Of a stretch of 64,000 nt of DNA, positions 11,663 to 25,183 are shown in pieces. The stretch lies in sequence record OP744025. One strand, written 5' to 3'. How positions within the stretch are numbered: the stretch's first letter is position 1; the number at the start of each line of letters is the position of its first letter. This DNA is from Escherichia phage A5-4. A program made the position numbers and the translations under genes. The notes below the pieces were generated by a model. That model made no database searches. It was given only the letters and a program-made list of their open reading frames with translations, and was not told where the DNA came from.

Positions 11663-11691
11663 TTGACGTGGTGAATCTGGTAGCGTAGTAT
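11663..11691 (+). promoter_or_regulatory. sigma70-like early promoter (first of array)
   Basis: TTGACG, 17 nt, TAGTAT. Confidence 0.5.
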
Positions 11692-11748
11692 TCATCTCAT
11701 CGAACGGCGACATGCCAACAAGTAAACAAATAAAAGGGCAACAACAAA

Positions 11749-11934
11749 ATGAATAAAAGAATTACAAACGTAAATCCTGGCGAACGTTTCCAACATGAGG
11801 GGCATTTGCACACTGTAGTAAGCAACAAAGAGCATACTGTAAGAGTAAATAGAAATATCTTGCAACTTCGCGATCGTTTTGGTATCGTACAGACTTACAC
11901 TTTCGAAGCAAATAAAACAGTTAAAACTTTCTGA
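11749..11934 (+). CDS. hypothetical small early protein
   Basis: promoter approx 11663-11691 upstream; ORF track. Confidence 0.5.
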   Translation: MNKRITNVNPGERFQHEGHLHTVVSNKEHTVRVNRNILQLRDRFGIVQTYTFEANKTVKTF

Positions 11935-11945
11935 GGATTTTTAAA

Positions 11946-12281
11946 ATGGCACTAGTCACTAAGTATTTCATTGAAGGCCAGCAAGCGGCGCAACAAGGTT
12001 ACAGCCGTGTTACTCGTTACAAGAAAGAAGAAAACAAGATTGAATTTTTCAAGGGTTACGATAGTGTAAACCGTGATGCAATGGTCCTACGCTTCGAATC
12101 CGATCCAGTGGGCAAGCCTGTTACCTCTTACCAGGCATCACCGCAGATTGTTTATGTTGGTACTGTTAAAGAATGTAACGACAAGTTAATCACTTTGAAG
12201 CAGGCCGATCGTGCGGGTTACTTTGTTGTTTACACTGCTGACGGTAAGCCTTACCAGTACGAAAGCAAATATTTTAAATAA
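11946..12281 (+). CDS. hypothetical small early protein
   Basis: ORF track; GAGGA RBS. Confidence 0.55.
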   Translation: MALVTKYFIEGQQAAQQGYSRVTRYKKEENKIEFFKGYDSVNRDAMVLRFESDPVGKPVTSYQASPQIVYVGTVKECNDKLITLKQADRAGYFVVYTADGKPYQYESKYFK

Positions 12282-12287
12282 AAAGTA

Positions 12288-12344
12288 TTGACAGAAAGAA
12301 AGAAGTAAATTAAATTATACCACGTAACGCCGCAATCGTGCGGC
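12288..12344 (+). promoter_or_regulatory. promoter + 5' stem-loop cassette
   Basis: TTGACA ... TAAATT then hairpin GCCGCA-ATCG-TGCGGC. Confidence 0.5.
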
Positions 12345-12371
12345 AATAAAAACTGATAGGAATTGAACAAA

Positions 12372-12584
12372 ATGGCTAAAATCATCATTAAAAAATCCCG
12401 TGTATCTTCTGTTGCTCGCGTCGAAATGGTAAACACTATGCCAGGTTACCGGACTCGCGAGGAAGCCCGAAGCGTTGCAAAACAGATTAAAGCCCGTGGC
12501 TTAACTGTAAGTGCACCGACCAAAACACAAGAAGGATGGAAGGTATCTATTAAATCCGGTACACTGTCAATCAATAAACACTAA
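12372..12584 (+). CDS. hypothetical small early protein
   Basis: track ORF begins at TTG 12363; ATG 12372 preferred; promoter+hairpin cassette upstream. Confidence 0.5.
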   Translation: MAKIIIKKSRVSSVARVEMVNTMPGYRTREEARSVAKQIKARGLTVSAPTKTQEGWKVSIKSGTLSINKH

Positions 12585-12646
12585 TAGCCAAAACATTAAC
12601 GGGGCAACTTTGCCCTCATTAAATAACATTATCCAGGAGTATTAAC

Positions 12647-12805
12647 ATGACTAGCCAAAACACTAACATTGAAAAAATCAACATTACTAAAGAGCGTAAA
12701 GCATGGAATGAAACATTAAATCTCAAAGGTAAGAAGCTGAATAAAACTAAACGCGATCGCAGTACAAAGCGGGCCTTTTGTGAATTTACAGCGGATCAAG
12801 AGTGA
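12647..12805 (+). CDS. small hypothetical protein (52 aa)
   Basis: not in track; hairpin GGGCAACTTTGCCC and GGAG upstream. Confidence 0.35.
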   Translation: MTSQNTNIEKINITKERKAWNETLNLKGKKLNKTKRDRSTKRAFCEFTADQE

Positions 12806-13101
12806 TGATTAAAGTTATTGCACTTACTGCTTTATTGTGTATACCATTTTTGGCGCACGGTACTAAGTTTTACGGTGCTAACTTGATAGATTGTAAAGCT
12901 CATATGCTGGACCATGAAACAGGCAACAAATTTCTTAAGCCTTTCCAGATCAATCCGGCGGCATTTAGTGACGGTGTTTTGTATCAGGAAGGTAAAGCCA
13001 GTACGCTGATAATGCATTACGATCCGGCAACAAAGAAAGGTAGTCTATCAATCCAGGTTGGAGAGGTGGAAGAGTTTTCCGGTGAAATAGTCTGTAATTA
13101 A
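12805..13101 (+). CDS. secreted/periplasmic small protein
   Basis: N-terminal signal peptide MIKVIALTALLCIPFLAHG; track ORF starts at GTG 12802. Confidence 0.5.
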   Translation: MIKVIALTALLCIPFLAHGTKFYGANLIDCKAHMLDHETGNKFLKPFQINPAAFSDGVLYQEGKASTLIMHYDPATKKGSLSIQVGEVEEFSGEIVCN

Positions 13102-13163
13102 TATCTTGAGGCCCGTCATTGTACGGGCCTTTTTCTTTTATGAAAATAATTTTGAAAATGTTG

Positions 13164-13231
13164 TTGACAGTAAAATCGATTCTGTTAAGATGTATCACAT
13201 CAGGACGGGGAACGAAGTAAACACTCCCCGT
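13164..13231 (+). promoter_or_regulatory. promoter + 5' stem-loop cassette without downstream ORF
   Basis: TTGACA, 16 nt, TAAGAT, GTATCACAT, hairpin ACGGGGA-13nt-TCCCCGT; next promoter starts about 60 nt later. Confidence 0.5.
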
Positions 13232-13289
13232 TAAGTAGTCCAGGAGTAAGACATACGAAAAACTCCCCTGATAAAAAGATTTAAAAGTG

Positions 13290-13346
13290 GTTGACACAAA
13301 ATTAAAAACTGTTAAGATGTATCACATACGGCGGCAATAGTGCCGC
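13290..13346 (+). promoter_or_regulatory. promoter + 5' stem-loop cassette
   Basis: TTGACA, 16 nt, TAAGAT, GTATCACAT, hairpin GGCGGCA-ATAG-TGCCGCC. Confidence 0.6.
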
Positions 13347-13367
13347 CTCCAACAAAGAGAAATTATC

Positions 13368-13619
13368 ATGGCTAACAAAACTAAAACCACTAAAACTTAT
13401 AACGGTCACAAAAACAAAAATCATTGGAACGTTTCTCTATGGCTTAACAATGATTCATCACTTTACCAGCTGGCGAAAGAATTTATTAACGCTAACACTA
13501 ATCGTAATGATGCGGCGCGGGATATGATGATTTTTCTGGAACAAACTGGACAATATAAAACTCCAGACGGTTTCAAGTACAGCACTACGGCGATCCGTGC
13601 TGCAATGGTTGGAATGTAA
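13368..13619 (+). CDS. hypothetical small early protein, paralog family A
   Basis: paralog of 15186-15425 (shared HWNVSLW and C-terminal TPDGFKYSTTAIRAAMVGM); cassette upstream. Confidence 0.6.
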   Translation: MANKTKTTKTYNGHKNKNHWNVSLWLNNDSSLYQLAKEFINANTNRNDAARDMMIFLEQTGQYKTPDGFKYSTTAIRAAMVGM

Positions 13620-13675
13620 TATTCAATACTGTAACAATGGCGGGATTAGTTCCCGCCTTTGCGGAGAAATATCTA

Positions 13676-13963
13676 ATGAGCAAAGTAATTGACTGTAAAG
13701 TGTTAACCAAATCATTGTCAATCAGTGAGTGCACCAATGGTTATTGGCTTTATGATGAAACACGCGGCATGAATCTGGCTATGGAAGCTAAAACGGCTGA
13801 GGCGGCGTATGTGCAAGCCCTGGAATACTACCAGAGACGTTTAAAGGAAGTAGAAAACAATTATCAGAATCTCAAAGAGAAAGTAGATCATTTCGTTGGT
13901 CAATTCGTTGACGATGACGAGGAAGACGGGCACTACTGCAACCGCTGCGGATCTTACAGTTAA
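13676..13963 (+). CDS. hypothetical small early protein
   Basis: track ORF starts at 13637 inside hairpin; ATG 13676 after GGAG preferred. Confidence 0.5.
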   Translation: MSKVIDCKVLTKSLSISECTNGYWLYDETRGMNLAMEAKTAEAAYVQALEYYQRRLKEVENNYQNLKEKVDHFVGQFVDDDEEDGHYCNRCGSYS

Positions 13964-13967
13964 GTAC

Positions 13968-14026
13968 TTGCAATTAGTTTTAAGTACTGTATAATGTTTT
14001 ACATCGAGAGCGGGAATAGTTCCCGC
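13968..14026 (+). promoter_or_regulatory. promoter + 5' stem-loop cassette
   Basis: TTGCAA, 16 nt, TATAAT, hairpin GCGGGAA-TAG-TTCCCGC. Confidence 0.6.
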
Positions 14027-14049
14027 CTCACATCAAAGAGATTAAAATT

Positions 14050-14277
14050 ATGGCTATCCTTATTGTTCGTGTATCCGGTACAGTTGGTAACTCCCAGGTT
14101 GTAGCAGTTGTAACAAGCAAAAAGATTAATGAATCTTCTAAAATCTTGAACGAATGGGCCGTTGCTAACTTTGGTCAATGGTCGAGCGTCGAGTATCTCG
14201 AATCTTACCAGGTGCCAACTATTAGCCTAACCGATCTCAATGTTGATCGCCTGTTATGCCTGGATGAATTGATTTAA
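14050..14277 (+). CDS. hypothetical small early protein
   Basis: cassette 13968-14026 upstream; ORF track. Confidence 0.55.
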   Translation: MAILIVRVSGTVGNSQVVAVVTSKKINESSKILNEWAVANFGQWSSVEYLESYQVPTISLTDLNVDRLLCLDELI

Positions 14278-14284
14278 AAAGTAG

Positions 14285-14344
14285 TTGCAAAGTAAAACGA
14301 ATAAAGTATAATACATTACATCAGGGGGAGAAATGATTCTCCCC
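14285..14344 (+). promoter_or_regulatory. promoter + 5' stem-loop cassette
   Basis: TTGCAA, 16 nt, TATAAT, hairpin GGGGAGAA-ATGA-TTCTCCCC. Confidence 0.6.
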
Positions 14345-14361
14345 ACTAAAAGGAAACTAAA

Positions 14362-14505
14362 ATGAAAACTTGTCAGTGTGGTAAAAAGTCTATTGCTGGT
14401 CTGCGTCGCGGTGTTGCTTTATGCCAGTATCATTACAATAGTCAAGTATGGGGTAAAACGTGGGCTGACCAGGTTGAAGCAGCAAAGAAAGCAAAAAGTA
14501 ATTGA
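14362..14505 (+). CDS. small Cys-rich protein (47 aa)
   Basis: CQCGKK-x12-CQYHY; cassette upstream; not in track. Confidence 0.4.
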   Translation: MKTCQCGKKSIAGLRRGVALCQYHYNSQVWGKTWADQVEAAKKAKSN

Positions 14506-14558
14506 CAGCAAGAAGAAAAAGAGTAAACTGTATTACGTAGGGCGGCAATAGCGCCGCC
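14502..14558 (+). promoter_or_regulatory. promoter + 5' stem-loop cassette
   Basis: TTGACA overlapping stop codon of previous ORF; hairpin GGCGGC-AATAGC-GCCGCC. Confidence 0.5.
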
Positions 14559-14582
14559 ACATCAAAGATAGAGAGAATCAAA

Positions 14583-14801
14583 ATGGCCAATATCCGCACT
14601 GTACTGAAAAATGCAAAACAAGTTTTATTTTCTGACGATGAATATTTTAATCGCAATATCAAAGGCGTTCGGAACATTGAGGATGTAAAGGAATTATTTG
14701 GAATCAAAGGTAACGTATATCGTAAAGGATTGCACGGTAATAATTTTGAATATAAGTTGGCTGATAGTGATTATAATTTTACACTGACCACCATTAGTTG
14801 A
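14583..14801 (+). CDS. hypothetical small early protein
   Basis: cassette 14502-14558 upstream. Confidence 0.55.
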   Translation: MANIRTVLKNAKQVLFSDDEYFNRNIKGVRNIEDVKELFGIKGNVYRKGLHGNNFEYKLADSDYNFTLTTIS

Positions 14802-14820
14802 AAGTTTTAATCTAGCGCTA

Positions 14821-14849
14821 TTGACTTAAGCCGATAGTGCTGGCATAAT
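14821..14849 (+). promoter_or_regulatory. sigma70-like early promoter
   Basis: TTGACT, 17 nt, CATAAT; near-duplicate of 15114-15142. Confidence 0.55.
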
Positions 14850-14881
14850 AACTTTTATCAAGAACATCAAAGGAAAGTAAA

Positions 14882-15094
14882 ATGGCTATCATTACTAAAA
14901 TCAAAGTAAACAAAACACTGGTTAAGCTGGAAGAAGTGAAAGCAGGTTATAAAGTATCTTGGTGTGGCATGTATCGGATGTTCACAGATATAGACGATGC
15001 AATCAATTACTACACTAACACGATTAAAAACTTTGTTCGTGCTGATGTGATTATTGCAGTGGAAGCACATAAAGCATCGAAAGAAAGTAAGTAA
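14882..15094 (+). CDS. hypothetical small early protein
   Basis: promoter 14821-14849 upstream; AAGGAAAG RBS. Confidence 0.55.
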   Translation: MAIITKIKVNKTLVKLEEVKAGYKVSWCGMYRMFTDIDDAINYYTNTIKNFVRADVIIAVEAHKASKESK

Positions 15095-15113
15095 AATTAT
15101 TACCACAGTACTA

Positions 15114-15142
15114 TTGACAACTGCTGATAGTACTGACATAAT
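15114..15142 (+). promoter_or_regulatory. sigma70-like early promoter
   Basis: TTGACA, 17 nt, CATAAT, then AACTTTTATCAAG as in 14821 copy. Confidence 0.55.
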
Positions 15143-15185
15143 AACTTTTATCAAGTAGTACAAATCAAAAAGAGAGAATATCATC

Positions 15186-15425
15186 ATGGCTAAATCTAAA
15201 ACTTTCAACGATCACAAAAACAAAACTCATTGGAATGTTTCCTTGTGGATTAATAATGGTGAAGCACTGTATCGGCTTGCTCAAAATTGCATTGCACAAA
15301 GTAAAACTAAAGATATTGCTGCGGAATGTATGTACCGCAGATTAAAAGCGAACGGCACTACAACAACGCCGGACGGATTTAAGTATAGCACCACTGCGAT
15401 CCGTGCCGCGATGGTTGGAATGTAA
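15186..15425 (+). CDS. hypothetical small early protein, paralog family A
   Basis: paralog of 13368-13619; promoter 15114-15142. Confidence 0.6.
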   Translation: MAKSKTFNDHKNKTHWNVSLWINNGEALYRLAQNCIAQSKTKDIAAECMYRRLKANGTTTTPDGFKYSTTAIRAAMVGM

Positions 15426-15444
15426 AAAGAAAAAGTAAAAGTAG

Positions 15445-15501
15445 TTGACACAAAGAAACAAAACAAGTAAATTAATCACATCAGGCGGGGAATGGCCCCG
15501 C
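15445..15501 (+). promoter_or_regulatory. promoter + 5' stem-loop cassette
   Basis: TTGACA, 17 nt, TAAATT, AATCACATCAGG, hairpin GCGGGG-AATGG-CCCCGC; near-identical to 17565-17621. Confidence 0.6.
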
Positions 15502-15523
15502 TAAAAGAGAAGAGAGAAATCAA

Positions 15524-15856
15524 ATGAGCTTTTTATCTATCGTGCAGACTAACTTTGAAAATGATTTTATTGCTCAAGCTATCAACATTGACAAAGGTAT
15601 CCCAAATATCAATTTTGGTTTTAATAGTGGTGGTTATGAGAGATACCAGTATTTTGTAACTGACGATGGAAGTGTTTTAGGTATCAATACGGTGATGGCT
15701 AATATCCAAAACATTAATTTCAATGATCCCGATGAGCGCTCATTCTATATCGTCGGTGTCCAGGTGAACTACAATGATGACTCTTTAATCGATGATTACA
15801 CTGGCGAGACGTTAGAGAGTGCTTACGGTGACGAATCAGAAGAAGAAGAAGAATAA
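15524..15856 (+). CDS. hypothetical small early protein with acidic C-terminus
   Basis: ends DESEEEEE; cassette 15445-15501 upstream. Confidence 0.55.
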   Translation: MSFLSIVQTNFENDFIAQAINIDKGIPNINFGFNSGGYERYQYFVTDDGSVLGINTVMANIQNINFNDPDERSFYIVGVQVNYNDDSLIDDYTGETLESAYGDESEEEEE

Positions 15857-15870
15857 GATTAAAAAAGTAG

Positions 15871-15930
15871 TTGACTGAAAGACTACAAAGAAGTAAGATA
15901 ATTAACGAATAGGGGGAAACATCTTCCCCC
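15871..15930 (+). promoter_or_regulatory. promoter + 5' stem-loop cassette
   Basis: TTGACT, 17 nt, TAAGAT, hairpin GGGGGAA-ACATC-TTCCCCC. Confidence 0.6.
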
Positions 15931-15956
15931 ATAAACAAAAGAAAGAGAGATTAAAA

Positions 15957-16139
15957 ATGACAGAACTGATTGCAACTACAAAGATCGAAGGCGTTAACGA
16001 TGTTACTTTGTCCTATGATCCTTCTACTCTGGTTTATGTTGTGAAATATGGCAGAATGATCGCAGAACTTGATTGCATTGATGAGGCTTTCGAAAAATAT
16101 TTCGAACTTATCAATATTGCTTATGATGACTACCGTTAA
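15957..16139 (+). CDS. hypothetical small early protein
   Basis: cassette 15871-15930 upstream. Confidence 0.55.
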   Translation: MTELIATTKIEGVNDVTLSYDPSTLVYVVKYGRMIAELDCIDEAFEKYFELINIAYDDYR

Positions 16140-16169
16140 TATACAACGCAAAAATAGAAAGGTGATAAA

Positions 16170-16379
16170 ATGATCAATGAAAAAACAATCAATGACGTTC
16201 GAGAGGAAGTTTTAGCCGTTGCCGTAGAATCTGGCGCACGTCAGGCATTTTGGAAAGCTACTGATCTTTACCCTGAGCAAGCCGAAAATATTCTCAATCA
16301 GGTCAGCGTTAAACTTGAACAAATGGGAAAACTGAAAACAAGTGAGCGCCTCGACCAAATCATTAAAGAAAGTTTTTGA
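16170..16379 (+). CDS. hypothetical small early protein
   Basis: ORF track; AAAGGTGA RBS. Confidence 0.55.
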   Translation: MINEKTINDVREEVLAVAVESGARQAFWKATDLYPEQAENILNQVSVKLEQMGKLKTSERLDQIIKESF

Positions 16380-16416
16380 TTGACTTTTAACATTGCCCCT
16401 ATTAGTATTCAGGGGC
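16380..16416 (+). promoter_or_regulatory. promoter with hairpin overlapping -10
   Basis: TTGACT, 17 nt, TAGTAT inside GCCCCT...AGGGGC inverted repeat. Confidence 0.5.
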
Positions 16417-16443
16417 AAGATTAAAAGAAACAAGGACACGAAG

Positions 16444-16755
16444 ATGAATGATATTGTTAGCATCATAGGTTTACTCGGCATAGGTTACATCGCCACATCA
16501 ATTACAATGAGTTACTTCAATAAAAGGCGTGATAAAATGTTTTGTTACTTTGAGTATCGTTACCGTGGTAAGGTTGGATCATCCCGTGACTATGGTCCGA
16601 TGTTAGAGATTGATGCGGTTGGCGCTATGCAGTATCGCCAGTCACTAGGGGCTGAAATAATTTTTGAAGTGTACCGCAGTACAGAAGAAGAGATCCACGA
16701 CATTATTGATGAGCGTCAATATTATCACGAACAACAAACTAAACGCAGGGCTTAA
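16444..16755 (+). CDS. hypothetical small early protein with N-terminal TM helix
   Basis: track ORF starts 16393 inside promoter; ATG 16444 preferred. Confidence 0.5.
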   Translation: MNDIVSIIGLLGIGYIATSITMSYFNKRRDKMFCYFEYRYRGKVGSSRDYGPMLEIDAVGAMQYRQSLGAEIIFEVYRSTEEEIHDIIDERQYYHEQQTKRRA

Positions 16756-16758
16756 GAT

Positions 16759-16896
16759 ATGACTAATACAAACCGACAAAAAATCATCAAAACTAAAAAG
16801 CTTGATTTCAATACTTATCAAGAATGCAAGAAGAAAGTAAAAGATAAGCGAGAGAACAAGCGGCATGAATGGATCACTAATACAATCGATCTTTAA
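16759..16896 (+). CDS. small basic protein (45 aa)
   Basis: not in track; followed by terminator 16904-16930. Confidence 0.35.
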   Translation: MTNTNRQKIIKTKKLDFNTYQECKKKVKDKRENKRHEWITNTIDL

Positions 16897-16903
16897 CAAT
16901 CAA

Positions 16904-16930
16904 GGCCCGCTATGATGTGGGCCTTTCTTT
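16904..16930 (+). terminator. rho-independent terminator
   Basis: GGCCC-GCTATGATGT-GGGCC followed by TTTCTTT. Confidence 0.6.
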
Positions 16931-16943
16931 ATGGAGAACAGAC

Positions 16944-17171
16944 ATGATTAATATTCTTTCACTTACAGAAGTGATCCGCTTCCTCAAAAACAACGCCCTG
17001 GGAACGTCTATAGCGTATCTAATCCCTCAAGGTAAAGATTATGCCAGCGTTACACGTTCAATCACTGCTACGGCCTCCAGAGAAGAAATAAAGGTCAGTG
17101 TAAGCCAATTGCTCATCGTTGATCCTTCCTCCTGTGAAACAACCCAGGCTGTAAAGATAATTAGAAAATAA
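16944..17171 (+). CDS. hypothetical small early protein
   Basis: track ORF starts inside terminator; ATG 16944 after GGAG preferred. Confidence 0.5.
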   Translation: MINILSLTEVIRFLKNNALGTSIAYLIPQGKDYASVTRSITATASREEIKVSVSQLLIVDPSSCETTQAVKIIRK

Positions 17172-17256
17172 TTTAAAAAACTTCTTGCATCCATTATCGA
17201 GAAGATGTACATTAGTTTCATCAAGACGAGATGAAGATAACCCAAAGGTGATTACT

Positions 17257-17550
17257 ATGTTATACGAAGTTTTTGCAGGTTTCTGTTTTTATGGTGCTGC
17301 CGCCGTTCGCCAGTGTGATGACTATGTAGTTGAGTCATTCGATGATCCTTTGGCGTGTGAGATTGTTACTACAACTTATGAGCAAGATCGCCGTTGGATT
17401 AATCCGGCCTGTATTGCATCGCCTGAGGTTGAAGCTATGCCGGAAGGTGAGGAATTGACAGAAGAAGACTTGCAAGAAGTAAAAGAAGTTATGAGTTACA
17501 TGATTGATAATCTGGACGCTGAAAACTTGCAACGTGCCTTACAAAAATAA
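17257..17550 (+). CDS. hypothetical small early protein
   Basis: track start 17185; ATG 17257 after AAAGGTGA preferred. Confidence 0.5.
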   Translation: MLYEVFAGFCFYGAAAVRQCDDYVVESFDDPLACEIVTTTYEQDRRWINPACIASPEVEAMPEGEELTEEDLQEVKEVMSYMIDNLDAENLQRALQK

Positions 17551-17564
17551 TTTTAAAAAAGTAG

Positions 17565-19122: not shown

Positions 19123-19129
19123 AAACTTG

Positions 19130-19400: not shown

Positions 19401-19413
19401 ATTGAGGTGTAAG

Positions 19414-19563
19414 ATGTACAAGCTATTAACCTGGGAAACAGAATCATCGTCACCGATCAGCCGGACCTTTTTTGATTTGTGCACGGCTTACAGGCTGGCA
19501 AAGGGAGGGTATCATAAGGCCCAAATCATTGATGAATTTAATGTTATCCTTTATGAATTTTAA
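19414..19563 (+). CDS. small hypothetical protein
   Basis: track start 19348; ATG 19414 after GAGGTG preferred. Confidence 0.4.
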   Translation: MYKLLTWETESSSPISRTFFDLCTAYRLAKGGYHKAQIIDEFNVILYEF

Positions 19564-19610
19564 TCAATTCATATACTTAAAAGAAAGTTAGAAAAAGTTT
19601 TAAAAAGTGG

Positions 19611-19639
19611 TTGCAACAGGTATTGGATAGTAGTATAGT
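19611..19639 (+). promoter_or_regulatory. sigma70-like early promoter
   Basis: TTGCAA, 17 nt, TATAGT. Confidence 0.5.
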
Positions 19640-19692
19640 ACTTTCAACGGGGCGAGATGGCCCAAAACGAAAAAACTTGAAAGGTGATTATC

Positions 19693-19785
19693 ATGATGGC
19701 AATTTTCTTAATTTCTCTTCTGGTCGCTGTATGTTCTGCCACTGCTGCCGCTGTACTTTATGACACCCGCTACAATGAGGAATAA
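19693..19785 (+). CDS. small hydrophobic peptide (30 aa)
   Basis: promoter 19611-19639; AAGGTGA RBS; not in track. Confidence 0.3.
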   Translation: MMAIFLISLLVAVCSATAAAVLYDTRYNEE

Positions 19786-19790
19786 TAAAA

Positions 19791-20009
19791 ATGAATATTG
19801 TCAACATTACAGGTAAGACCGAGATCCTTAAGAATCTTGCGCCAGGTGAGTCCACCGTATGGATCTGCAAAGATGGCGAAGTAGAAAAACAAATGAGATT
19901 GTTTACCGCTATTTGTTGTCGGTTAAATATGAAAGTTACACAAATCCGATCGATGATTGTTAGTGTGGGAAACATTCCGACTGAATGCATAATTCTTACA
20001 AAGATTTAA
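19791..20009 (+). CDS. hypothetical small early protein
   Basis: ORF track; GAGGAA RBS. Confidence 0.5.
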   Translation: MNIVNITGKTEILKNLAPGESTVWICKDGEVEKQMRLFTAICCRLNMKVTQIRSMIVSVGNIPTECIILTKI

Positions 20010-20085
20010 AAATAGCTTTACAACAACGATAAAATCAGTACAATACAAATCAGGCAATAAAGCCAACTAAAGAAAGGTAAAGACC

Positions 20086-20325
20086 ATGCAAACTATTATC
20101 ACTAAATTTCTTCCTCCTACGAATACCCGTGGCGCTCGCATCAAAGCAAAATGTTGGTTGACAGATATCACTATCGCCTATCCGGTAGCCGAGATCAACG
20201 AAGCCCATAAACTGGCGGCAGAAGTGTTAATTACAAAATTGAAGATGACAACAGATATTGATTGGAAAATTGTTGCAAGTGGTGAAACACCGGACGGATC
20301 AGGTTATGCATTTATCATCAAATAA
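20086..20325 (+). CDS. hypothetical small early protein
   Basis: ORF track; AAAGGTAAAG RBS. Confidence 0.55.
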   Translation: MQTIITKFLPPTNTRGARIKAKCWLTDITIAYPVAEINEAHKLAAEVLITKLKMTTDIDWKIVASGETPDGSGYAFIIK

Positions 20326-20328
20326 TTG

Positions 20329-20384
20329 TTGACAACAGCAAAGTAAGCGCGTAGTATTCATTTTACAGGGGCGACAAGCGCCCC
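20329..20384 (+). promoter_or_regulatory. promoter + 5' stem-loop cassette
   Basis: TTGACA, 17 nt, TAGTAT, hairpin GGGGCG-ACAAG-CGCCCC. Confidence 0.6.
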
Positions 20385-20393
20385 GCTTATCAG

Positions 20394-20675
20394 ATGAGAC
20401 AAATCATGAAAATATCATTGGACGTTGCAATCAAGGCCATCGAATCCGGTTACACTCTGGTTAAGGACGATAAGGCTAAAATCGTGCATCACGTTAACAA
20501 GGAAACAGGCGAAAGCATGATCACATATAAAGCCGCCTACTTTCTCCAATCAGTAGCAGATCCGCGCCTGCAACGCCAGGTTACGGCGGCTATCGCTAAA
20601 AAATTATGTGCTTTACAGGGTACAAGTTTTAACGAGATCGCCCCGTGTTTTGATTGGTCAAGCTTGAAAAAATAG
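20394..20675 (+). CDS. hypothetical small early protein
   Basis: cassette 20329-20384 upstream; start 20394 or 20406 uncertain. Confidence 0.5.
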   Translation: MRQIMKISLDVAIKAIESGYTLVKDDKAKIVHHVNKETGESMITYKAAYFLQSVADPRLQRQVTAAIAKKLCALQGTSFNEIAPCFDWSSLKK

Positions 20676-20676
20676 T

Positions 20677-20733
20677 TTGACAATACGCAGTTATCTGGTA
20701 AAGTGTACTACATAGCGCGGAAATACTTCCCGC
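20677..20733 (+). promoter_or_regulatory. promoter + 5' stem-loop cassette
   Basis: TTGACA then imperfect hairpin GCGGAAATACTTCCCGC. Confidence 0.45.
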
Positions 20734-20752
20734 CATTAATGAGGATAATTTA

Positions 20753-20890
20753 ATGAAAACTTTCAACGCAACAGCCTCGACAATTGGTTATATTATTACA
20801 GTGCAAGCCGTAGATCTGGTAGCAGCAGCAAACAAGATTAAAAGAATGATCCCGCTAGGTAGTGAATTTTCCGTTTGGGAAGTAAAATAA
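20753..20890 (+). CDS. small hypothetical protein (45 aa)
   Basis: cassette 20677-20733 upstream; GAGGA RBS; not in track. Confidence 0.4.
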   Translation: MKTFNATASTIGYIITVQAVDLVAAANKIKRMIPLGSEFSVWEVK

Positions 20891-20893
20891 TTC

Positions 20894-20955
20894 TTGACAA
20901 TAGTTTGTTACTTGATAGAATGTATTTCGTAGGGCGGGGCAATGGAGCAACGCCC
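20894..20955 (+). promoter_or_regulatory. promoter + 5' stem-loop cassette
   Basis: TTGACA, 16 nt, TAGAAT, GTATTTCGTAGGGCGGGG...CGCCC. Confidence 0.55.
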
Positions 20956-20973
20956 ATTAATGAGGCTAGCATC

Positions 20974-21078
20974 ATGTTAGAGAAAATTTTCACGGTTGCA
21001 GTGGTTGGCCTGGCGTTATCGGTTGGAGTGGTTGCAACTATGGCTAATATGATCCTATCTTCCCACGGTATCGGTTAA
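20974..21078 (+). CDS. small membrane peptide (34 aa)
   Basis: track start 20875 inside promoter; ATG 20974 preferred. Confidence 0.35.
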   Translation: MLEKIFTVAVVGLALSVGVVATMANMILSSHGIG

Positions 21079-21090
21079 GAGAGACACATC

Positions 21091-21477
21091 ATGAAAACAG
21101 AAATCATTATTGAAATCATCAACGGTTACAAAGAGGCTTTTATCTTTGCTGAATCAGCCAGGAATCACGAAGGTGATTTTATAGATGACATGACTGATTA
21201 TGATTTTTCAGATCAAGCCCAGCAACGGATCATTCGTGACGTGGCGGCTTTTTGTGACGCCAATGATGCCGCTATCTCTGAGGCAATGAGCGACGGCGCA
21301 ACAGCCAACCAGATCGGGAATGATTTACATTTTACCCGTAACGGTCACAGCGTAGGCTTTTGGGATCGCCCTGAGATATACACTACTAACACGGCTAACC
21401 GTTTGACCAATGCCGCTAAATTTATGCCAAACGTGTCAGCCTACATTGGGAAAGATAATCTGATTTATATTGAATAA
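21091..21477 (+). CDS. hypothetical early protein
   Basis: 128 aa; AAGAGAGA RBS. Confidence 0.55.
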   Translation: MKTEIIIEIINGYKEAFIFAESARNHEGDFIDDMTDYDFSDQAQQRIIRDVAAFCDANDAAISEAMSDGATANQIGNDLHFTRNGHSVGFWDRPEIYTTNTANRLTNAAKFMPNVSAYIGKDNLIYIE

Positions 21478-21483
21478 AAAGTA

Positions 21484-21538
21484 TTGACAAGCTGAATCAA
21501 CCTGACAAGATGTATCACATAGGGGCGATAAACGCCCC
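21484..21538 (+). promoter_or_regulatory. promoter + 5' stem-loop cassette
   Basis: TTGACA ... CAAGAT GTATCACAT, hairpin GGGGCG-ATAAA-CGCCCC. Confidence 0.55.
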
Positions 21539-21558
21539 ATAACAGAAAGGGTAATCTT

Positions 21559-21753
21559 ATGACGTTAGCAACATGTACCGGATCAAAAATTGCTTGCTTT
21601 GAGTTTATGGAAGACTACCACACGACCGCAATCACTGACCAATATATTACAGTGATCACGCGTGACGGTATCGCCTGGCATGTTCCGGTTTATGATGGGG
21701 ATACCTATGAAGTCACCGACAGCGACGGCAATACAGCTATCTTTGTTGTCTAA
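21559..21753 (+). CDS. hypothetical small early protein
   Basis: cassette 21484-21538 upstream. Confidence 0.55.
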   Translation: MTLATCTGSKIACFEFMEDYHTTAITDQYITVITRDGIAWHVPVYDGDTYEVTDSDGNTAIFVV

Positions 21754-21765
21754 GGGGGAAACACT

Positions 21766-21993
21766 ATGCACAATAACATCATTACCGATCGTGCCGCCAC
21801 TATGCGCCCTGGCGATCGGGCACGTTTACAGGTTGGCGCTTATCCGTTCCCTACTTATGACTTTTGCAAGGTGACGGCAGTCGAAAACAATCCCTTTGAT
21901 CCTGATACCGTGATCATCTGGTACGAAGGAAGGGGAAATAAGTATGAAGATGTTTTATGGCGGGATGAGCATATCAACATTATTCGTTACTAA
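21766..21993 (+). CDS. hypothetical small early protein
   Basis: GGGGGAA RBS; ORF track. Confidence 0.55.
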   Translation: MHNNIITDRAATMRPGDRARLQVGAYPFPTYDFCKVTAVENNPFDPDTVIIWYEGRGNKYEDVLWRDEHINIIRY

Positions 21994-22111
21994 TCGCCAC
22001 CTAACAGCCTAAATAGTAGGAGGTAATGCAATCCCCTACTCAATGAGAATGGAGCGCCCTGGCTTATGCTGGGGCGTTTTATGTTGTATGGAAATAATTT
22101 AGAAAATAAGC

Positions 22112-22168
22112 TTGACGCCGGGAATGTTAGCGCGTATAGTTTATCACATAGGGCGGCAATAGTGCCGC
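22112..22168 (+). promoter_or_regulatory. promoter + 5' stem-loop cassette
   Basis: TTGACG, 17 nt, TATAGT, TTATCACAT, hairpin GCGGCA-ATAG-TGCCGC. Confidence 0.6.
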
Positions 22169-22188
22169 TCATAATTGGAGTAGAGATC

Positions 22189-22362
22189 ATGGCAATTCTG
22201 GCGAAAGATGTAAAAGTAGGTATGACCTTTAATGATTGTGAAGTTGTCTATGTTGCCGCGCACGGCGACGGTATCATTACCATTGAAACAGAACACTTTG
22301 ATCGAGATTGTGGCGAGATGGAATATTTTTCTTGCGAGTATCATGAAAACGATGAGTTTTAA
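22189..22362 (+). CDS. small acidic protein (57 aa)
   Basis: track start 22066 spans promoter; ATG 22189 after GGAG preferred. Confidence 0.45.
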   Translation: MAILAKDVKVGMTFNDCEVVYVAAHGDGIITIETEHFDRDCGEMEYFSCEYHENDEF

Positions 22363-22366
22363 ACTA

Positions 22367-22421
22367 TTGACACTGTAAGTAATTGTGTTAATATTTTTGT
22401 GTAGGGCGGCAATGTTGCCGC
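22367..22421 (+). promoter_or_regulatory. promoter + 5' stem-loop cassette
   Basis: TTGACA, 16 nt, TAATAT, hairpin GCGGCAA-TG-TTGCCGC. Confidence 0.6.
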
Positions 22422-22442
22422 TCACTGACTGGAGCTATCACC

Positions 22443-22844
22443 ATGACCTTTACAATCACCTCTTACACTGACGTTGCCAGCATTGCTAAAACTTTCGGCC
22501 CTGAAGCCCTTAAATATGCGGTATCCAATGGTAATCTGACAAAAGAGGAATGTTATCTGATTGGAAGCTGTAAACGTTGGGCGGTATCTCGTAACATCGA
22601 GATTGAAAACGTAAATGATGGCAACATCGAATATAGCGTTGATGCAGTATTCCAAGTTGTTGATTTAGGTGGTATCTATAATACCAATCTTAATGATGTG
22701 CGTATCGTTCGCACTGGCTTTGGGGCTTATGATGTTCCAGTTCGTGAAGCTATGGAAAAAGGTTATATTAATCCAGCCATTTTAAGCATGATCATGACTG
22801 AGGCCAAACAACGTAACGAGATACGGGCTATCCTGGGCCTGTAA
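22443..22844 (+). CDS. hypothetical early protein
   Basis: cassette 22367-22421 upstream; GGAG RBS. Confidence 0.6.
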   Translation: MTFTITSYTDVASIAKTFGPEALKYAVSNGNLTKEECYLIGSCKRWAVSRNIEIENVNDGNIEYSVDAVFQVVDLGGIYNTNLNDVRIVRTGFGAYDVPVREAMEKGYINPAILSMIMTEAKQRNEIRAILGL

Positions 22845-22865
22845 TGAAATATTAATGGAAAACTA

Positions 22866-22917
22866 TTGACACGGATCGTCAATATGCTAATATTTATCAC
22901 GTAGGGCGGCAACGCCC
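22866..22917 (+). promoter_or_regulatory. promoter + 5' stem-loop cassette
   Basis: TTGACA, 16 nt, TAATAT, TTATCACGTAGGGCGGCAACGCCC. Confidence 0.55.
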
Positions 22918-22943
22918 CAGATTAATAAAAATAGGAAATAAAT

Positions 22944-23150
22944 ATGACTACTTCAATGATCAGATCTTCCGACATTAAAAAGGCTTTATCTGCATTGCGT
23001 TATCATCATAGAATGAAAGTAATCAACGATGAGAGCTATCTAGATTCATCGTTAGAAAGCGATACGTTGGAAGCCATTTCAAAATTATCTGATTTGCATA
23101 AACGCATGACCGAAAGCAACCGATCCGACTTCATAGGGGGCGAAATATGA
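22944..23150 (+). CDS. hypothetical small early protein
   Basis: cassette 22866-22917 upstream. Confidence 0.55.
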   Translation: MTTSMIRSSDIKKALSALRYHHRMKVINDESYLDSSLESDTLEAISKLSDLHKRMTESNRSDFIGGEI

Positions 23151-23407
23151 GCATTGCAATGTTAATCAATACCGTAGAAGAGGCGAAAGCATTAAAGTTA
23201 CGTGTTGAACTGATTGATCAGCCAGGTGGAGATCTCCTTGTACAAATCTATCCCCCAAAGGATGATTCTGGCGCTTATGATTGGTGCTACTCTGACACGT
23301 TCGAACAAGTAGACATTAAAGCAATAACATCATTTATCAATAGGGCTATACTTGAGCAAACGATAGAACTTAACGGGATGTTAAAAACACCCTGGCACAT
23401 TTACTGA
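23147..23407 (+). CDS. hypothetical small early protein
   Basis: ATGA overlap; followed by terminator 23419-23444. Confidence 0.55.
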   Translation: MSIAMLINTVEEAKALKLRVELIDQPGGDLLVQIYPPKDDSGAYDWCYSDTFEQVDIKAITSFINRAILEQTIELNGMLKTPWHIY

Positions 23408-23418
23408 GTTCGACAAAA

Positions 23419-23444
23419 GGGCTTGACTTGTTCAGCCCTTTTTT
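23419..23444 (+). terminator. rho-independent terminator
   Basis: GGGCTTGACTTGTTCAGCCC followed by TTTTTT. Confidence 0.7.
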
Positions 23445-23584
23445 GCTATTCTTATCAAACGGGCGGCACCTGGGAACAGGGGGGAGGTAATCACTGGACG
23501 ACTCCGCTATATAGTGATAGTAAATAGCTATCAATAATCTCCAAAAATAAAATAAAACCTATCGAGTCTTTACAATTCTTTCTA

Positions 23585-23613
23585 TTGACACAACAACCGC
23601 ATTACAGTATTAT
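23585..23613 (+). promoter_or_regulatory. strong sigma70-like promoter with no ORF downstream
   Basis: TTGACA, 17 nt, TATTAT, then ATCTCGTAGGGCAGCG start region; no ORF of 60 aa or more for about 350 nt. Confidence 0.55.
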
Positions 23614-23886
23614 TTATCTCGTAGGGCAGCGAAGCAGTGATGTAAAGTAGTTACTCTATGATGTAAGTTCTGAGAAGTCGAATCCGATAAAGTATCAGAA
23701 AGTTTCTAAGTTTTCGAATCGTCCAGATGAAAAAGGCTGGCAAGTGTTGAGAAAGGGCACGTTGAGTAAGTCCTGAACAGGGGCGCTCCTAGACACCTTC
23801 TACTGAGATTGCGATCGAAGTGTTAAACTGTGAGAAACGATAAAGAGTACCAGGAAAGAAAGAAGTAAAAGAAGTGAAAAAGATTG
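23614..23886 (+). ncRNA. candidate non-coding transcript (promoter-driven, ORF-free)
   Basis: lies between terminator 23419-23444/promoter 23585 and next promoter 23887; only stop-rich frames; no structure or homology evidence. Confidence 0.25.
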
Positions 23887-23916
23887 TTGACACGAAGGTA
23901 AGTTTTGTACTATTAT
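23887..23916 (+). promoter_or_regulatory. sigma70-like early promoter
   Basis: TTGACA, 18 nt, TATTAT, ATCTTGTAGGGCA. Confidence 0.5.
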
Positions 23917-23960
23917 CTATCTTGTAGGGCAAACTTCAAGAACATTAAAAAGGGTACAAA

Positions 23961-24236
23961 ATGTTACAGCTTAACGCCAAATTAGACAAAGAAATCACTG
24001 AGTTTTGGGATATGGTAGTGGCTACAGATGTTGACGGTGTAGCAAGTCCTTACCTCAATAACATTGAGTATCATAATGTTGCAGCTATGAATGCAGAATA
24101 CGCAGAAGAAGGCGGCGCGGATAAGTTTGCTAAAAGCAACGGTTTCACTGATGCTAACGACATGATGCAATCAGTTTTGTGGCAAGCCCAGGAAGATTTT
24201 GAAGAAAAAACTCTTGAATTCGCCAGACGTTCATAA
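23961..24236 (+). CDS. hypothetical small early protein
   Basis: promoter 23887-23916 upstream. Confidence 0.55.
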   Translation: MLQLNAKLDKEITEFWDMVVATDVDGVASPYLNNIEYHNVAAMNAEYAEEGGADKFAKSNGFTDANDMMQSVLWQAQEDFEEKTLEFARRS

Positions 24237-24291
24237 TAGAATAATCAAACGGGCCGAAAGGCCCACTAATTGACCTAACAGGATTAACATC

Positions 24292-24561
24292 ATGAATCGC
24301 ATCGACCAGCTTAAAGTAGTTCAGCATATGGCTTACCGTATCCTTGAAGTTCAGAAAGGGAGCAAAAAAGAAGTATGTGAGAAGGCTTATAAGGTATTCA
24401 GCCACAAAGCTGATGATTGGAAGTTGCAGAAAGTAAAAAAGGCCGATATCCTGGGATACCTTGAAGAAGAGATCCGCATTGCAGACCAAAAACAGATTCG
24501 TCGTGATGAAGCAGAACATAACCAGGCCTGGCAAGAATGGTTTAAAGGCTACACTAAGTAA
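24292..24561 (+). CDS. hypothetical small early protein
   Basis: ORF track; hairpin 24251-24264 upstream. Confidence 0.5.
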   Translation: MNRIDQLKVVQHMAYRILEVQKGSKKEVCEKAYKVFSHKADDWKLQKVKKADILGYLEEEIRIADQKQIRRDEAEHNQAWQEWFKGYTK

Positions 24562-24624
24562 AATTGAAAACGGGGGGCCATATGGTCCCTTTGTAAATAT
24601 TCCATTAATTTACAATTCTCCCTA

Positions 24625-24654
24625 TTGACAAGAAAGTCAATTTTGCAGTATAGT
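24625..24654 (+). promoter_or_regulatory. sigma70-like early promoter
   Basis: TTGACA, 18 nt, TATAGT. Confidence 0.5.
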
Positions 24655-24694
24655 TATATCTCTAGCAGCAAACAACAAAACAAAGGACAACGAC

Positions 24695-25114
24695 ATGAAC
24701 ATCAAATCAACTAATCCGGCTTACTCTTTCGATAACGCTTTTTGTCACGGTAGCGCCGCCAAAGGTTTTGAAATTGATGGTAAACTGGTTATCGTCAATG
24801 TTGATGGGGAAGAGGTTGCAGTTTATCCAGTGGCAGACGTTAAAAGCCGTTTACAATGTCGCATGGACGTTAATGAATACCGCCTTGATCCGGTTCGTGT
24901 CGTTGCCCTGGTCCTGGAAGAAGAAATTAAAGCAATGCAGCACGGTAATAAGTTTATTGGTGATGCACAGGACAACATGAAAGTAAGCCGCCACAAAGTT
25001 AATGAAGCACTGAAAGATTTTGGCTTTAAAGACCTGATTATCAAACGTGATGAAAAATTCCGCTTTCGTAATGATCTGGCAAATCGCTACTATGAAATCT
25101 ATGAAGCACTTTAA
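24695..25114 (+). CDS. hypothetical early protein
   Basis: 139 aa; promoter 24625-24654; followed by terminator. Confidence 0.6.
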   Translation: MNIKSTNPAYSFDNAFCHGSAAKGFEIDGKLVIVNVDGEEVAVYPVADVKSRLQCRMDVNEYRLDPVRVVALVLEEEIKAMQHGNKFIGDAQDNMKVSRHKVNEALKDFGFKDLIIKRDEKFRFRNDLANRYYEIYEAL

Positions 25115-25131
25115 GAGGTAAGACAACAAGG

Positions 25132-25153
25132 GGCCGCAATAGCGGCCTTTTCT
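25132..25153 (+). terminator. rho-independent terminator
   Basis: GGCCGC-AATA-GCGGCC followed by TTTTCT. Confidence 0.7.
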
Positions 25154-25154
25154 A

Positions 25155-25183
25155 TTGACACCTGCTAACCATTCCTTTAATAT
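25155..25183 (+). promoter_or_regulatory. sigma70-like early promoter
   Basis: TTGACA, 17 nt, TAATAT, GCATCTTGTAGGGCA. Confidence 0.55.

Follow-up and report, generated by a model that had tools for sequence, protein, structure and literature searches.

We describe an array of promoter cassettes in the DNA of Escherichia phage A5-4 (sequence record OP744025), located at positions 11663-25183 of the stretch of 64,000 nucleotides analysed here, which we refer to as the window. The array is an early-gene 'hyperplastic' region of a Septuagintavirus-type (Vequintavirinae), rV5-type coliphage. Sequence reading and scans identified about 32 sigma-70-type promoter-like units on its plus strand, 19-20 of which carry a GC-rich hairpin starting 10-15 nt after the -10 element, followed by a ribosome-binding site (RBS) and an open reading frame (ORF) of 23-139 codons. 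The architecture is non-random and confined to one strand and one part of the genome, the stems covary, and crossovers between related phages lie inside the cassettes. We favour, with little more than even confidence, a reading according to which this is an array of early expression cassettes with hairpins in the 5' leaders of the transcripts and with cassette-mediated gene shuffling. The promoters are, as judged from their sequence, very likely early promoters of the host polymerase driving small accessory genes, while a role of the hairpin as a 5'-terminal leader structure stabilising or insulating the mRNA 5' end is a tentative assignment, to which we give somewhat less than an even chance.

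Strict promoters, i.e. those with a -35 element matching the consensus in at least five of six positions and with at least nine of twelve matches overall, are present in 30 units, and four more have TTGCAA as -35 element. The usual layout is aaaaagtaG-TTGACA-16/17 nt-TAnnnT, the 22 nt preceding the -35 element forming an UP-like tract (47% A, 76% A+T) with the core aaaaagta. On the 3' side of the -10 element follows the leader consensus tATCACATaGGgcGG, confirming a conserved motif that a preliminary description of this DNA had placed there. About 12 promoters have no downstream hairpin and fall into four groups, having a hairpin inside the spacer between -35 and -10 (14812-14843 and 15107-15134), a hairpin around the -10 element (16395-16416 and 19145-19165), a T-tract terminator just upstream (13108, 16902, 22051, 23416, 24571 and 25130) or no hairpin at all. 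The leader motif GTAGGGC is retained even in cassettes lacking a hairpin. A promoter outside the array, at 2504-2531 on the plus strand (TTGACT-16-TATACT, no hairpin), also carries the leader tatcacatc, which makes the start-site motif a general trait of the early promoters of this phage.

To count downstream hairpins we used a strict definition, requiring a stem of 5 bp or more with Watson-Crick pairs throughout, four or more of these being GC, and a stem beginning 10-14 nt after the -10 element. Such hairpins follow 14 of the 30 promoters, whereas 500 dinucleotide shuffles of the downstream segments gave 0.22 on average and never more than 2. The preliminary description had claimed at least 25 units of a single architecture; this architecture does exist, at a frequency well above that expected by chance, but it is complete in only 19-20 of the about 32 promoters. 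A covariance model comprising the -10 element, leader and hairpin (R1), scored on both strands of the window with filters off, yields 19 matches on the plus strand, all within 12311-25216, and one marginal match on the minus strand. In the complete 145-kb genome of phage A7_1, the closest complete relative, 19/19 matches are in the same stretch.

The geometry of these units is narrow. The hairpins have stabilities of -7 to -16 kcal/mol (median -11.6 kcal/mol) and loops of 3-14 nt with varied sequence. Their 3' ends are located 15-29 nt (median 20) upstream of the start codon and about 5-15 nt upstream of the RBS, closer than the 20-40 nt before the RBS originally proposed. Applying the usual E. 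coli rule, by which transcription starts at a purine following a pyrimidine 7-8 nt after the -10 element, the predicted start falls in the conserved CA(C/T)AT, leaving 3-5 unpaired nt before the stem (7 in one unit) and placing the hairpin at about +4 to +30 of the transcript. Of all hairpins in the array, 19 of about 25 are in one register relative to the -10 element.

Covariation in the stems points to a structure formed in plus-strand RNA. As the stems slip by one column in MAFFT alignments of the cassettes, which thereby are not structure-consistent, a covariance model was built and its alignment used, containing 67 model-collected copies (52 distinct) from the window, A73, LTH01, UPEC06, W70 and the Justusliebigvirus JohannJBalmer. 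In this alignment 80.3% of the cells are paired compared to 72.3% in column shuffles (0/500 reach the observed value), and there are 38 double-change cells compared to 18.7 +/- 3.0 in the shuffles (0/500). One stem pair occurs as CG 23 times and as GC 22 times, another as G.U 22 times, G-C 21 times and A-U twice. The model alignment is fitted to the structure; independent support comes from a slid-partner control, in which no more than 8 double-change cells are left once the 3' partners are shifted by 1-3 columns, and from orthologous cassettes, which we compared directly for this reason. Cassette 18025 has undergone a compensatory change from A-T to G-C in LTH01, and the closing pair of cassette 15445 is G.U in the window and G-C or A-U in relatives. 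The stem GCGGGAA/TTCCCGC of cassette 13968 is GCGGCA/TGCCGC in LTH01/UPEC06, and in UPEC06 cassette 15871 has lost one A together with its partner T.

The two arms of the stems differ in composition, the 5' arm containing 260 G and 80 C and the 3' arm 240 C and 75 G, and the wobble pairs, read in plus sense, are 24 G.T versus 0 T.G. Since both the wobbles and the G-rich 5' arm are strand-specific, they indicate a plus-sense structure of RNA (or of a single strand) and not a duplex operator. The asymmetry between 24 G.T and about 9 A.C/C.A pairs, counted with the two terminal pairs excluded and in part reflecting alignment noise, is suggestive only as a mark of the RNA strand. Based on the predicted start site, the hairpin is likely an RNA element located within the 5' leader. 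A search of 10500-28500 against Rfam 15 returned one match at chance level only (Trp_leader, E = 0.96).

Intrinsic termination by E. coli RNA polymerase requires a U tract. No U tract follows any of the downstream hairpins (0/20), in agreement with the preliminary description; their tails have about 1.7 T per 10 nt and are A-rich because the RBS follows, and a terminator scan lists none of the 20. Lacking a U tract and being located inside their own transcription unit, they are, as judged from their sequence, probably not efficient terminators, and we rejected their reading as intrinsic terminators. They share with such terminators being GC-rich intergenic hairpins, here of -9 to -16 kcal/mol, but they are located downstream and not upstream of the promoter, and canonical terminators co-exist with them in the array (Table 1). 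The narrow register of 10-15 nt, the missing U tracts and the covariation uphold the initial view of leader structures as opposed to terminators, with the position in the transcript being a predicted one.

Comparison with sister phages shows the cassettes to be seams of modular gene exchange. A73, UPEC06, LTH01 and W70 differ from the window by gene-sized indels and replacements, so that the gene content of the array varies among five close relatives. Taking BLAST block ends between the window and the four relatives as breakpoints, we obtained 35 coordinates grouped into 22 clusters, of which 16 touch cassettes (18.5% of the region) compared to 4.0 expected at random (p < 5e-5). Unlike this statistic, junctions read at the level of single bases in the aligned genomes, i.e. 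hybrid cassettes, establish recombination at the cassettes. At the g11 slot, flanked in the window by two cassettes of 72% identity, A73, UPEC06 and LTH01 carry a single cassette, its left part corresponding to the upstream copy and its right part to the downstream copy, with the switch inside the shared CATAATAACTTTTATCAAG. At the g36 slot A73 has one hybrid cassette switching inside TAGGGCGGCAAT..TGCCGCTCA, and UPEC06 has an unrelated ORF. The A73 crossovers are in a segment common to both cassettes, comprising -10 element and leader or leader and hairpin. The preliminary description had suggested inspecting related genomes for indels bounded by cassettes, and these two slots provide them. 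Furthermore, g43 (25235-25432) has a copy of a GGGGCCGCaata(G)(C/T)GGCC hairpin on each side, and the g43 module (25150-25435) is missing from LTH01 and UPEC06.

Duplications within the array, already noted in the preliminary description, were confirmed. Whole cassettes are repeated with identities of 87% (15437-15526 versus 17557-17646), 72% (14801-14876 versus 15094-15169) and 62% (13156-13220 versus 13283-13347), and the proteins of ORFs 13368-13619 and 15186-15425 are paralogs (59% amino acid identity, E = 4e-32). The family also extends beyond the close relatives. The -10 element, leader and hairpin of cassette 22112 are found with 85-100% identity in 133 phage records, including Justusliebigvirus and Phapecoctavirus of the Stephanstirmvirinae, the identity in Justusliebigvirus genomes being 97.6% over 41 nt. 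Justusliebigvirus JohannJBalmer (Bas62) has an equivalent array of about 17 units of promoter and downstream hairpin; ORFs shared with the window have 72-88% nucleotide identity and are arranged in the order g20-g12-g8 there and g8-g12-g20 here.

These data are consistent with a model according to which host RNA polymerase would fire immediately after infection at near-consensus sigma-70 promoters equipped with an A-rich UP-like tract. In 19-20 cassettes the transcript would start at the conserved CA(C/T)AT, 7-8 nt after the -10 element, and begin with 3-5 unpaired nt followed by the GC hairpin and, about 20 nt later, by an A-rich RBS and a small ORF. The hairpin may guard the short early transcripts against 5'-end-dependent decay by RppH/RNase E, would give each swapped-in ORF an identical 5' end and, in read-through transcripts, could form an intercistronic barrier. 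The cassette of about 70-90 bp at the same time provides portable homology, and recombination between cassettes removes, adds or exchanges single ORF modules, as proposed for similar elements of T4-like phages.

Stabilising hairpins at the 5' end are known from the 5' untranslated region of E. coli ompA and from the T7 gene 10 leader, both being single and experimentally proven elements. The hairpins of the array resemble these in being short and stable, in their distance of a few nt from the (here predicted) 5' end and in the unstructured RBS next to them within a leader of about 45-55 nt. They differ in being present in 20 paralogous copies, in the 5' end being a predicted one and in the number of 3-5 unpaired nt, which is borderline for a type of element expected within about 0-4 unpaired nt of the 5' end.

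Several points weigh against the model. From the work on ompA, 3-5 (once 7) unpaired nt are at the edge or upper limit for 5'-end protection. The loops are rich in purines and share a recurrent AAT(A/G)G-like core and an invariant AA, which may hint at a protein binding to them. Cassette duplication, and not selection, could account for part of the fixed register. In four promoters the hairpin occupies the spacer or surrounds the -10 element and is thus outside their own transcript, fitting a generic attenuator, a 3' barrier or a role in recombination better than a 5' stabiliser; these promoter-internal hairpins and the shared purine-rich loop core are what the model explains least well. As for the shuffling, a null allowing intergenic positions only expects 12.7 breakpoint clusters compared to the 16 observed (p = 0.11), so that position alone cannot separate recombination from selection against broken genes, and in W70 a 6.6-kb deletion joins 18353 to 24994 inside an ORF and not via cassettes. 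Finally, we found no data on transcription start, half-life or termination for this phage group in the searchable literature, so that the hairpin is a predicted feature of the RNA 5' end.

The closest known system are the promoter early stem-loops (PeSLs) of the T4-like phages RB49/phi1, PST/T4 and nt-1/KVP40 (Arbiol et al. 2010, PMC2839356; Comeau et al. 2014, PMC4122927), composed of an AT-rich tract, a sigma-70 early promoter and a Gn-loop-Cn stem-loop acting as a terminator, flanking indels and forming mini-circles (PMC2839356, PMC4122927). So far PeSLs are described only for T4-like phages. A resemblance to PeSLs had been suggested in the preliminary description, and it holds for composition, clustering and indel association: the array has the AT-rich tract, near-consensus sigma-70 promoter, Gn-loop-Cn stem-loop, Shine-Dalgarno sequence and ATG, the dense tandem arrangement of small ORFs of unknown function in a hyperplastic region, and indels or replacements between close relatives that are flanked by cassettes with crossovers inside the cassette. 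It does not hold for the position of the hairpin. We examined 26 kb of the hyperplastic region of RB49 directly, in which the promoters closely resemble those of the array (aaaaagttgTTGACA, with the upstream sequence aaaaagt(t/a)gTTGACA and a CAC(A/C)CAT start motif). The RB49 stem-loops are located in the spacer in 7 units and over the -10 element in 6 (together 13 of about 15 units with a hairpin) and do not extend more than 6 nt beyond the -10 element; one or two units only have downstream hairpins, and model R1 matches once in the 26 kb. In contrast, 19-20 of about 25 hairpins in the array are downstream, inside the cassette's own predicted transcript, and only about four units (14812, 15107, 16395 and 19145) and about five upstream terminators occupy classical positions. 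The terminator property probably does not apply either, termination being the published function and the downstream hairpins of the array having no U tract, and the lineage is Vequintavirinae/Stephanstirmvirinae instead of Straboviridae. Because RB49 has its stem-loops in the spacer or over the -10 element and their published role is termination, we regard the array as a PeSL variant and not as a plain member, i.e. as a PeSL-like system outside the T4-like phages.

The alternative that survives best, although we consider it unlikely, is that the stem-loops act as in classical PeSLs, as attenuators or terminators limiting read-through from upstream cassettes, their position relative to the own start being incidental. 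Gn-loop-Cn stems are common to RB49 and the array, an RB49 stem-loop lowered lacZ expression as strongly as rrnB T1 (PMC2839356), hairpins of the array are also present in spacers, around -10 elements and upstream of promoters, so that their position is not uniform and some would be able to act on upstream transcripts only, and most cassettes have no other terminator between them. However, an array that uses T-tract terminators six times provides none of its 20 downstream hairpins with such a tract, strong termination at about +4 to +30 would also cut short the transcripts of the cassette itself, and an incidental position is difficult to reconcile with 19 of about 25 hairpins being in the same register.

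An improbable alternative is that leader and hairpin form the recognition site of a phage or host protein coordinating an early regulon, candidates being an antitermination factor of the nut/boxB type, a regulator of translation or of early shutoff, or an enzyme modifying RNA. The conserved ATCACATAGGG directly preceding the hairpin, the persistence of GTAGGGC where the hairpin is missing, and the loop features listed above would be expected from such a site, and the arrangement of a conserved box and a short GC stem-loop behind an early promoter is reminiscent of boxA-boxB of lambda. In lambda, boxB has sequence-conserved pentaloops bound by N. In the array, too, early promoters are closely followed by a conserved linear motif and then by a GC stem of 5-8 bp carrying a purine-rich loop, but the loops range from 3 to 14 nt and vary, 20 copies exist, and neither an N-like protein nor a downstream terminator logic was identified. 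A loop of conserved size and sequence is not found, the similarity being restricted to an AA/AAT(A/G)G tendency. Loops and stems differ widely in sequence with pairing being maintained, unlike for a single sequence-specific binder, no Rfam family matches, the array offers few terminators for an antiterminator to overcome, and no candidate RNA-binding protein was identified, a cognate protein not having been sought. A related and quite unlikely proposal is that leader motif and hairpin are not just a passive cap-like structure but the regulon-wide 'zip code' recognised by a dedicated phage factor, with the promoter-leader unit being mobile between Vequintavirinae and Stephanstirmvirinae. If true, this factor would mark early transcripts for processivity, for protection from phage-induced host mRNA decay or for timed shutoff.

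Still less credible, and in our view highly improbable, is a function at the DNA level only, as the operator of an early-shutoff repressor, a cruciform or a recombination hot spot retained for promoting the exchange of cassettes, with no function in RNA. An operator over +1 to +25 would be at a classic repression site, crossovers are located inside the leader/hairpin segment, and one of the RB49 crossovers has been placed in the loop (PMC2839356). Stem sequences that differ between cassettes with complementarity being kept are the opposite of an operator, and the strand-specific G.T wobbles and G-rich 5' arm are not explained by the symmetry of duplex DNA. That no selected feature exists, the array being a by-product of recent tandem promoter duplication or a set of chance consensus matches, would agree with the mutual homology of the cassettes (60-87% identity), but has a practically negligible probability given the 14 strict hairpins versus 0.22 in shuffles, the diverged yet paired stems with compensatory changes and the conservation of the family across two phage subfamilies.

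For rV5, belonging to the same subfamily, 33 sigma-70 consensus promoters and 20 T-tract terminators were catalogued (Kropinski et al. 2013, PMC3606486, Table S4); the catalogue gives 7 nt after the -10 element and differs from our description in making no mention of promoter-proximal hairpins, cassettes or shuffling (PMC3606486). The words promoter, terminator, stem-loop and hairpin do not occur in the 'Septuagintavirus' paper (W70, A73, A7_1), and we found no report of promoter-proximal hairpins, start maps or PeSL-like cassettes in rV5-, phi92- or Septuagintavirus-type phages in the literature. The array extends the PeSL idea, i.e. repeated regulatory cassettes as seams of accessory genes, from T4-like phages to two other large groups of coliphages widely used in therapy collections, the rV5-like Vequintavirinae and the phi92/phAPEC8-like Stephanstirmvirinae, with crossover points exemplified at base level. 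The compact and conserved unit of UP-like tract, promoter, leader hairpin and RBS, with its natural covariation, offers a testable model for the influence of 5' structures on the fate of early phage mRNA and may be a ready-made expression part. For annotation, the cassettes could indicate where early genes, likely serving host takeover or anti-defence, begin and where engineered insertions would be tolerated.

The array is 98.5% identical to the corresponding region of A7_1 and partially colinear with A73, UPEC06, LTH01 and W70, all being Vequintavirinae. Its 43 small ORFs, of 23-139 codons and all on the plus strand, are annotated as hypothetical throughout, and a scan of 10 of them against PHROGs and Pfam gave only PHROGs of unknown function or no match. 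The features of the array are listed in Table 1.

Table 1. Promoters, cassettes, terminators and gene modules of the array; 'R1' denotes a match of the covariance model
Feature	Position	Strand	Description
Whole array	11663..25216	+	about 32 promoter cassettes, 43 small ORFs
First promoter	11663..11691	+	TTGACG-17-TAGTAT, no hairpin; drives ORFs 11749-11934, 11946-12281
Cassette	12288..12344	+	TTGACA-17-TAAATT; hairpin GCCGCAatcgTGCGGC 12329-12344; ORF 12372-12584; R1
Canonical intrinsic terminator	13108..13141	+	9-bp stem + TTTCTTTTAT; upstream of cassette 13164
Orphan cassette	13164..13232	+	TTGACA-16-TAAGAT; hairpin 13204-13232, 13-nt loop; no ORF before next cassette; R1
Cassette	13291..13347	+	TTGACA-16-TAAGAT; hairpin GGCGGCAatagTGCCGCC 13330-13347; ORF 13368-13619; R1
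Cassette	13968..14026	+	TTGCAA-16-TATAAT; hairpin GCGGGAAtagTTCCCGC 14010-14026; ORF 14050-14277; LTH01/UPEC06 ortholog GCGGCAatagTGCCGC; R1
Cassette	14285..14344	+	TTGCAA-16-TATAAT; hairpin GGGGAGAAatgaTTCTCCCC 14325-14344; ORF 14362-14505; R1
Cassette	14502..14558	+	TTGACA-16-TAAACT; hairpin GGCGGCaatagcGCCGCC 14541-14558; ORF 14583-14801; R1
Promoter	14812..14849	+	TTGACT-17-CATAAT 14821-14849; 12-bp hairpin over -35 and spacer 14812-14843; drives g11
g11	14882..15094	+	gene module flanked by two repeated cassettes; not in A73, LTH01, UPEC06
Promoter	15107..15142	+	TTGACA-17-CATAAT 15114-15142; spacer hairpin 15107-15134; direct repeat of 14801-14876; drives ORF 15186-15425
Cassette	15445..15502	+	TTGACA-17-TAAATT; hairpin GGCGGGGaatggCCCCGCT 15484-15502; ORF 15524-15856; R1
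Cassette	15871..15930	+	TTGACT-17-TAAGAT; hairpin GGGGGAAacatcTTCCCCC 15912-15930; ORFs 15957-16139, 16170-16379
Promoter-like	16380..16416	+	TTGACT-17-TAGTAT; hairpin around -10 16395-16416
Canonical intrinsic terminator	16902..16932	+	9-bp stem + TCTTTAT
Cassette	17565..17622	+	TTGACT-17-TAAATT; hairpin 17604-17622; 87% copy of 15437-15526; ORF 17638-18018; R1
Cassette	18025..18085	+	TTGACA-16-TAAACT; hairpin AAGCGGGAAcacTTCCCGCTT 18065-18085; ORF 18106-18357; R1
Cassette	18338..18397	+	TTGCAA-16-TATAAT; hairpin GGCGGGGAgtgttTCCCCGCC 18377-18397; ORF 18419-18598; R1
Promoter	18602..18630	+	TTGACG-17-TAATCT, no hairpin
Promoter	19130..19165	+	TTGACG-17-TATAAT; hairpin around -10 19145-19165; ORFs 19194-19400, 19414-19563
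Cassette	19611..19663	+	TTGCAA-17-TATAGT; weak hairpin 19649-19663, -7 kcal/mol; 23-codon ORF 19693-19763
Promoter	20017..20044	+	TTTACA-16-TACAAT, no stable hairpin
Cassette	20329..20384	+	TTGACA-17-TAGTAT; hairpin GGGGCGacaagCGCCCC 20368-20384; ORF 20407-20675; R1
Cassette	20677..20734	+	TTGACA-16-TAAAGT; imperfect bulged hairpin 20715-20734; ORF 20753-20890; R1
Cassette	20894..20955	+	TTGACA-16-TAGAAT; hairpin 20932-20955, 5-bp stem, 14-nt loop; ORF 20974-21078; R1
Cassette	21484..21538	+	TTGACA-16-CAAGAT; hairpin GGGGCGataaaCGCCCC 21522-21538; ORFs 21559-21753, 21766-21993; R1
Terminator-like hairpin	22051..22086	+	-19 kcal/mol, T-rich tail; upstream of cassette 22112
Cassette	22112..22170	+	TTGACG-17-TATAGT; hairpin GGGCGGCAatagTGCCGCTC 22151-22170, one G.U pair; g36 next; R1
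g36	22189..22362	+	gene module between two hairpin cassettes; not in A73; different ORF in UPEC06
Cassette	22367..22423	+	TTGACA-16-TAATAT; hairpin GGGCGGCAatgtTGCCGCTC 22404-22423; ORF 22443-22844; R1
Cassette	22866..22917	+	TTGACA-16-TAATAT; shortened hairpin GGGCGgcaaCGCCC 22904-22917; ORFs 22944-23150, 23147-23407; R1
Terminator-like hairpin	23416..23447	+	T tract; after ORF 23147-23407
Promoter	23585..23613	+	TTGACA-17-TATTAT, leader GTAGGGC, no hairpin; about 260 nt without ORF next
Promoter	23887..23916	+	TTGACA-18-TATTAT, leader GTAGGGC, no hairpin; ORF 23961-24236
Terminator-like hairpin	24571..24597	+	TTTG; after ORF 24292-24561, upstream of promoter 24625
Promoter	24625..24654	+	TTGACA-18-TATAGT, no hairpin; ORF 24695-25114
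Terminator hairpin	25130..25153	+	GGGGCCGCaataGCGGCC + TTTTCT; directly upstream of promoter 25155; repeated at 25440-25458
Cassette	25155..25215	+	TTGACA-17-TAATAT; interrupted hairpin GGGCaagc..gcaaGCCC 25194-25215; ORF 25235-25432; R1

Some units deviate from the general pattern. The orphan cassette 13164, with the next cassette following 127 nt on, is an orphan in A73 and W70 too; a second small hairpin (GGAGT...ACTCC) follows it within 13164-13290, and it could be what is left of a module that has been deleted or could give rise to a short RNA of about 100 nt. A cassette-type hairpin (GGCGGGAttagTTCCCGCC, -13.6 kcal/mol) at 13639-13657, located between ORFs 13368-13619 and 13676-13963 and having no recognisable promoter, could be a degraded cassette. 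The sole similar unit outside the array, at 58757 on the minus strand, comprises TTGACA-17-TATCAT, GGGGCAtgtTGCCCC from 10 nt after the -10 element and then ACTTTTAAAA, and sits just downstream of the thymidylate synthase gene. At the junction of the W70 deletion (about 7129-7482 in the W70 locus) the start of ORF 18106-18357 is fused to the end of ORF 24695-25114, forming the 354-nt chimeric ORF W70_1.

The stretch 23585-23886 contains a TTGACA-17-TATTAT promoter followed by about 260 nt with no plausible ORF on the plus strand. Its part at 23615-23840 (about 225 nt) has about 99% identity in A73, LTH01 and UPEC06 compared to about 92% in the flanks. The segment following the promoter has no match in Rfam and its fold is not better than that of shuffles (z = +1.4); a minus-strand ORF annotated here in A7_1 is probably spurious. 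We consider 23585-23886 a candidate for a conserved non-coding transcript or DNA element. The very short ORFs 19693-19763 (23 codons, not annotated in A7_1) and 20974-21078 (34 codons) are hydrophobic, have each their own cassette and RBS and are candidates for membrane peptides.

No tRNAs are encoded in the window. The array is directed rightward and ends at a gene-poor stretch of 2 kb, which is faced from the other side by a leftward nucleotide-metabolism block (NrdA/B, NrdD, thymidylate synthase). This stretch (25480-27300) has few genes and contains short repeats, i.e. tandem 21-mers at 26842-26883 and two copies of GT(C/A)AACCAAAATGGTTTA(C/G)AT at 26946-26995, as well as an inverted repeat at 25702-25804. 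The 'non-coding' box of the rV5 genome map may be the counterpart of this stretch, which could represent an origin or a packaging-related region.

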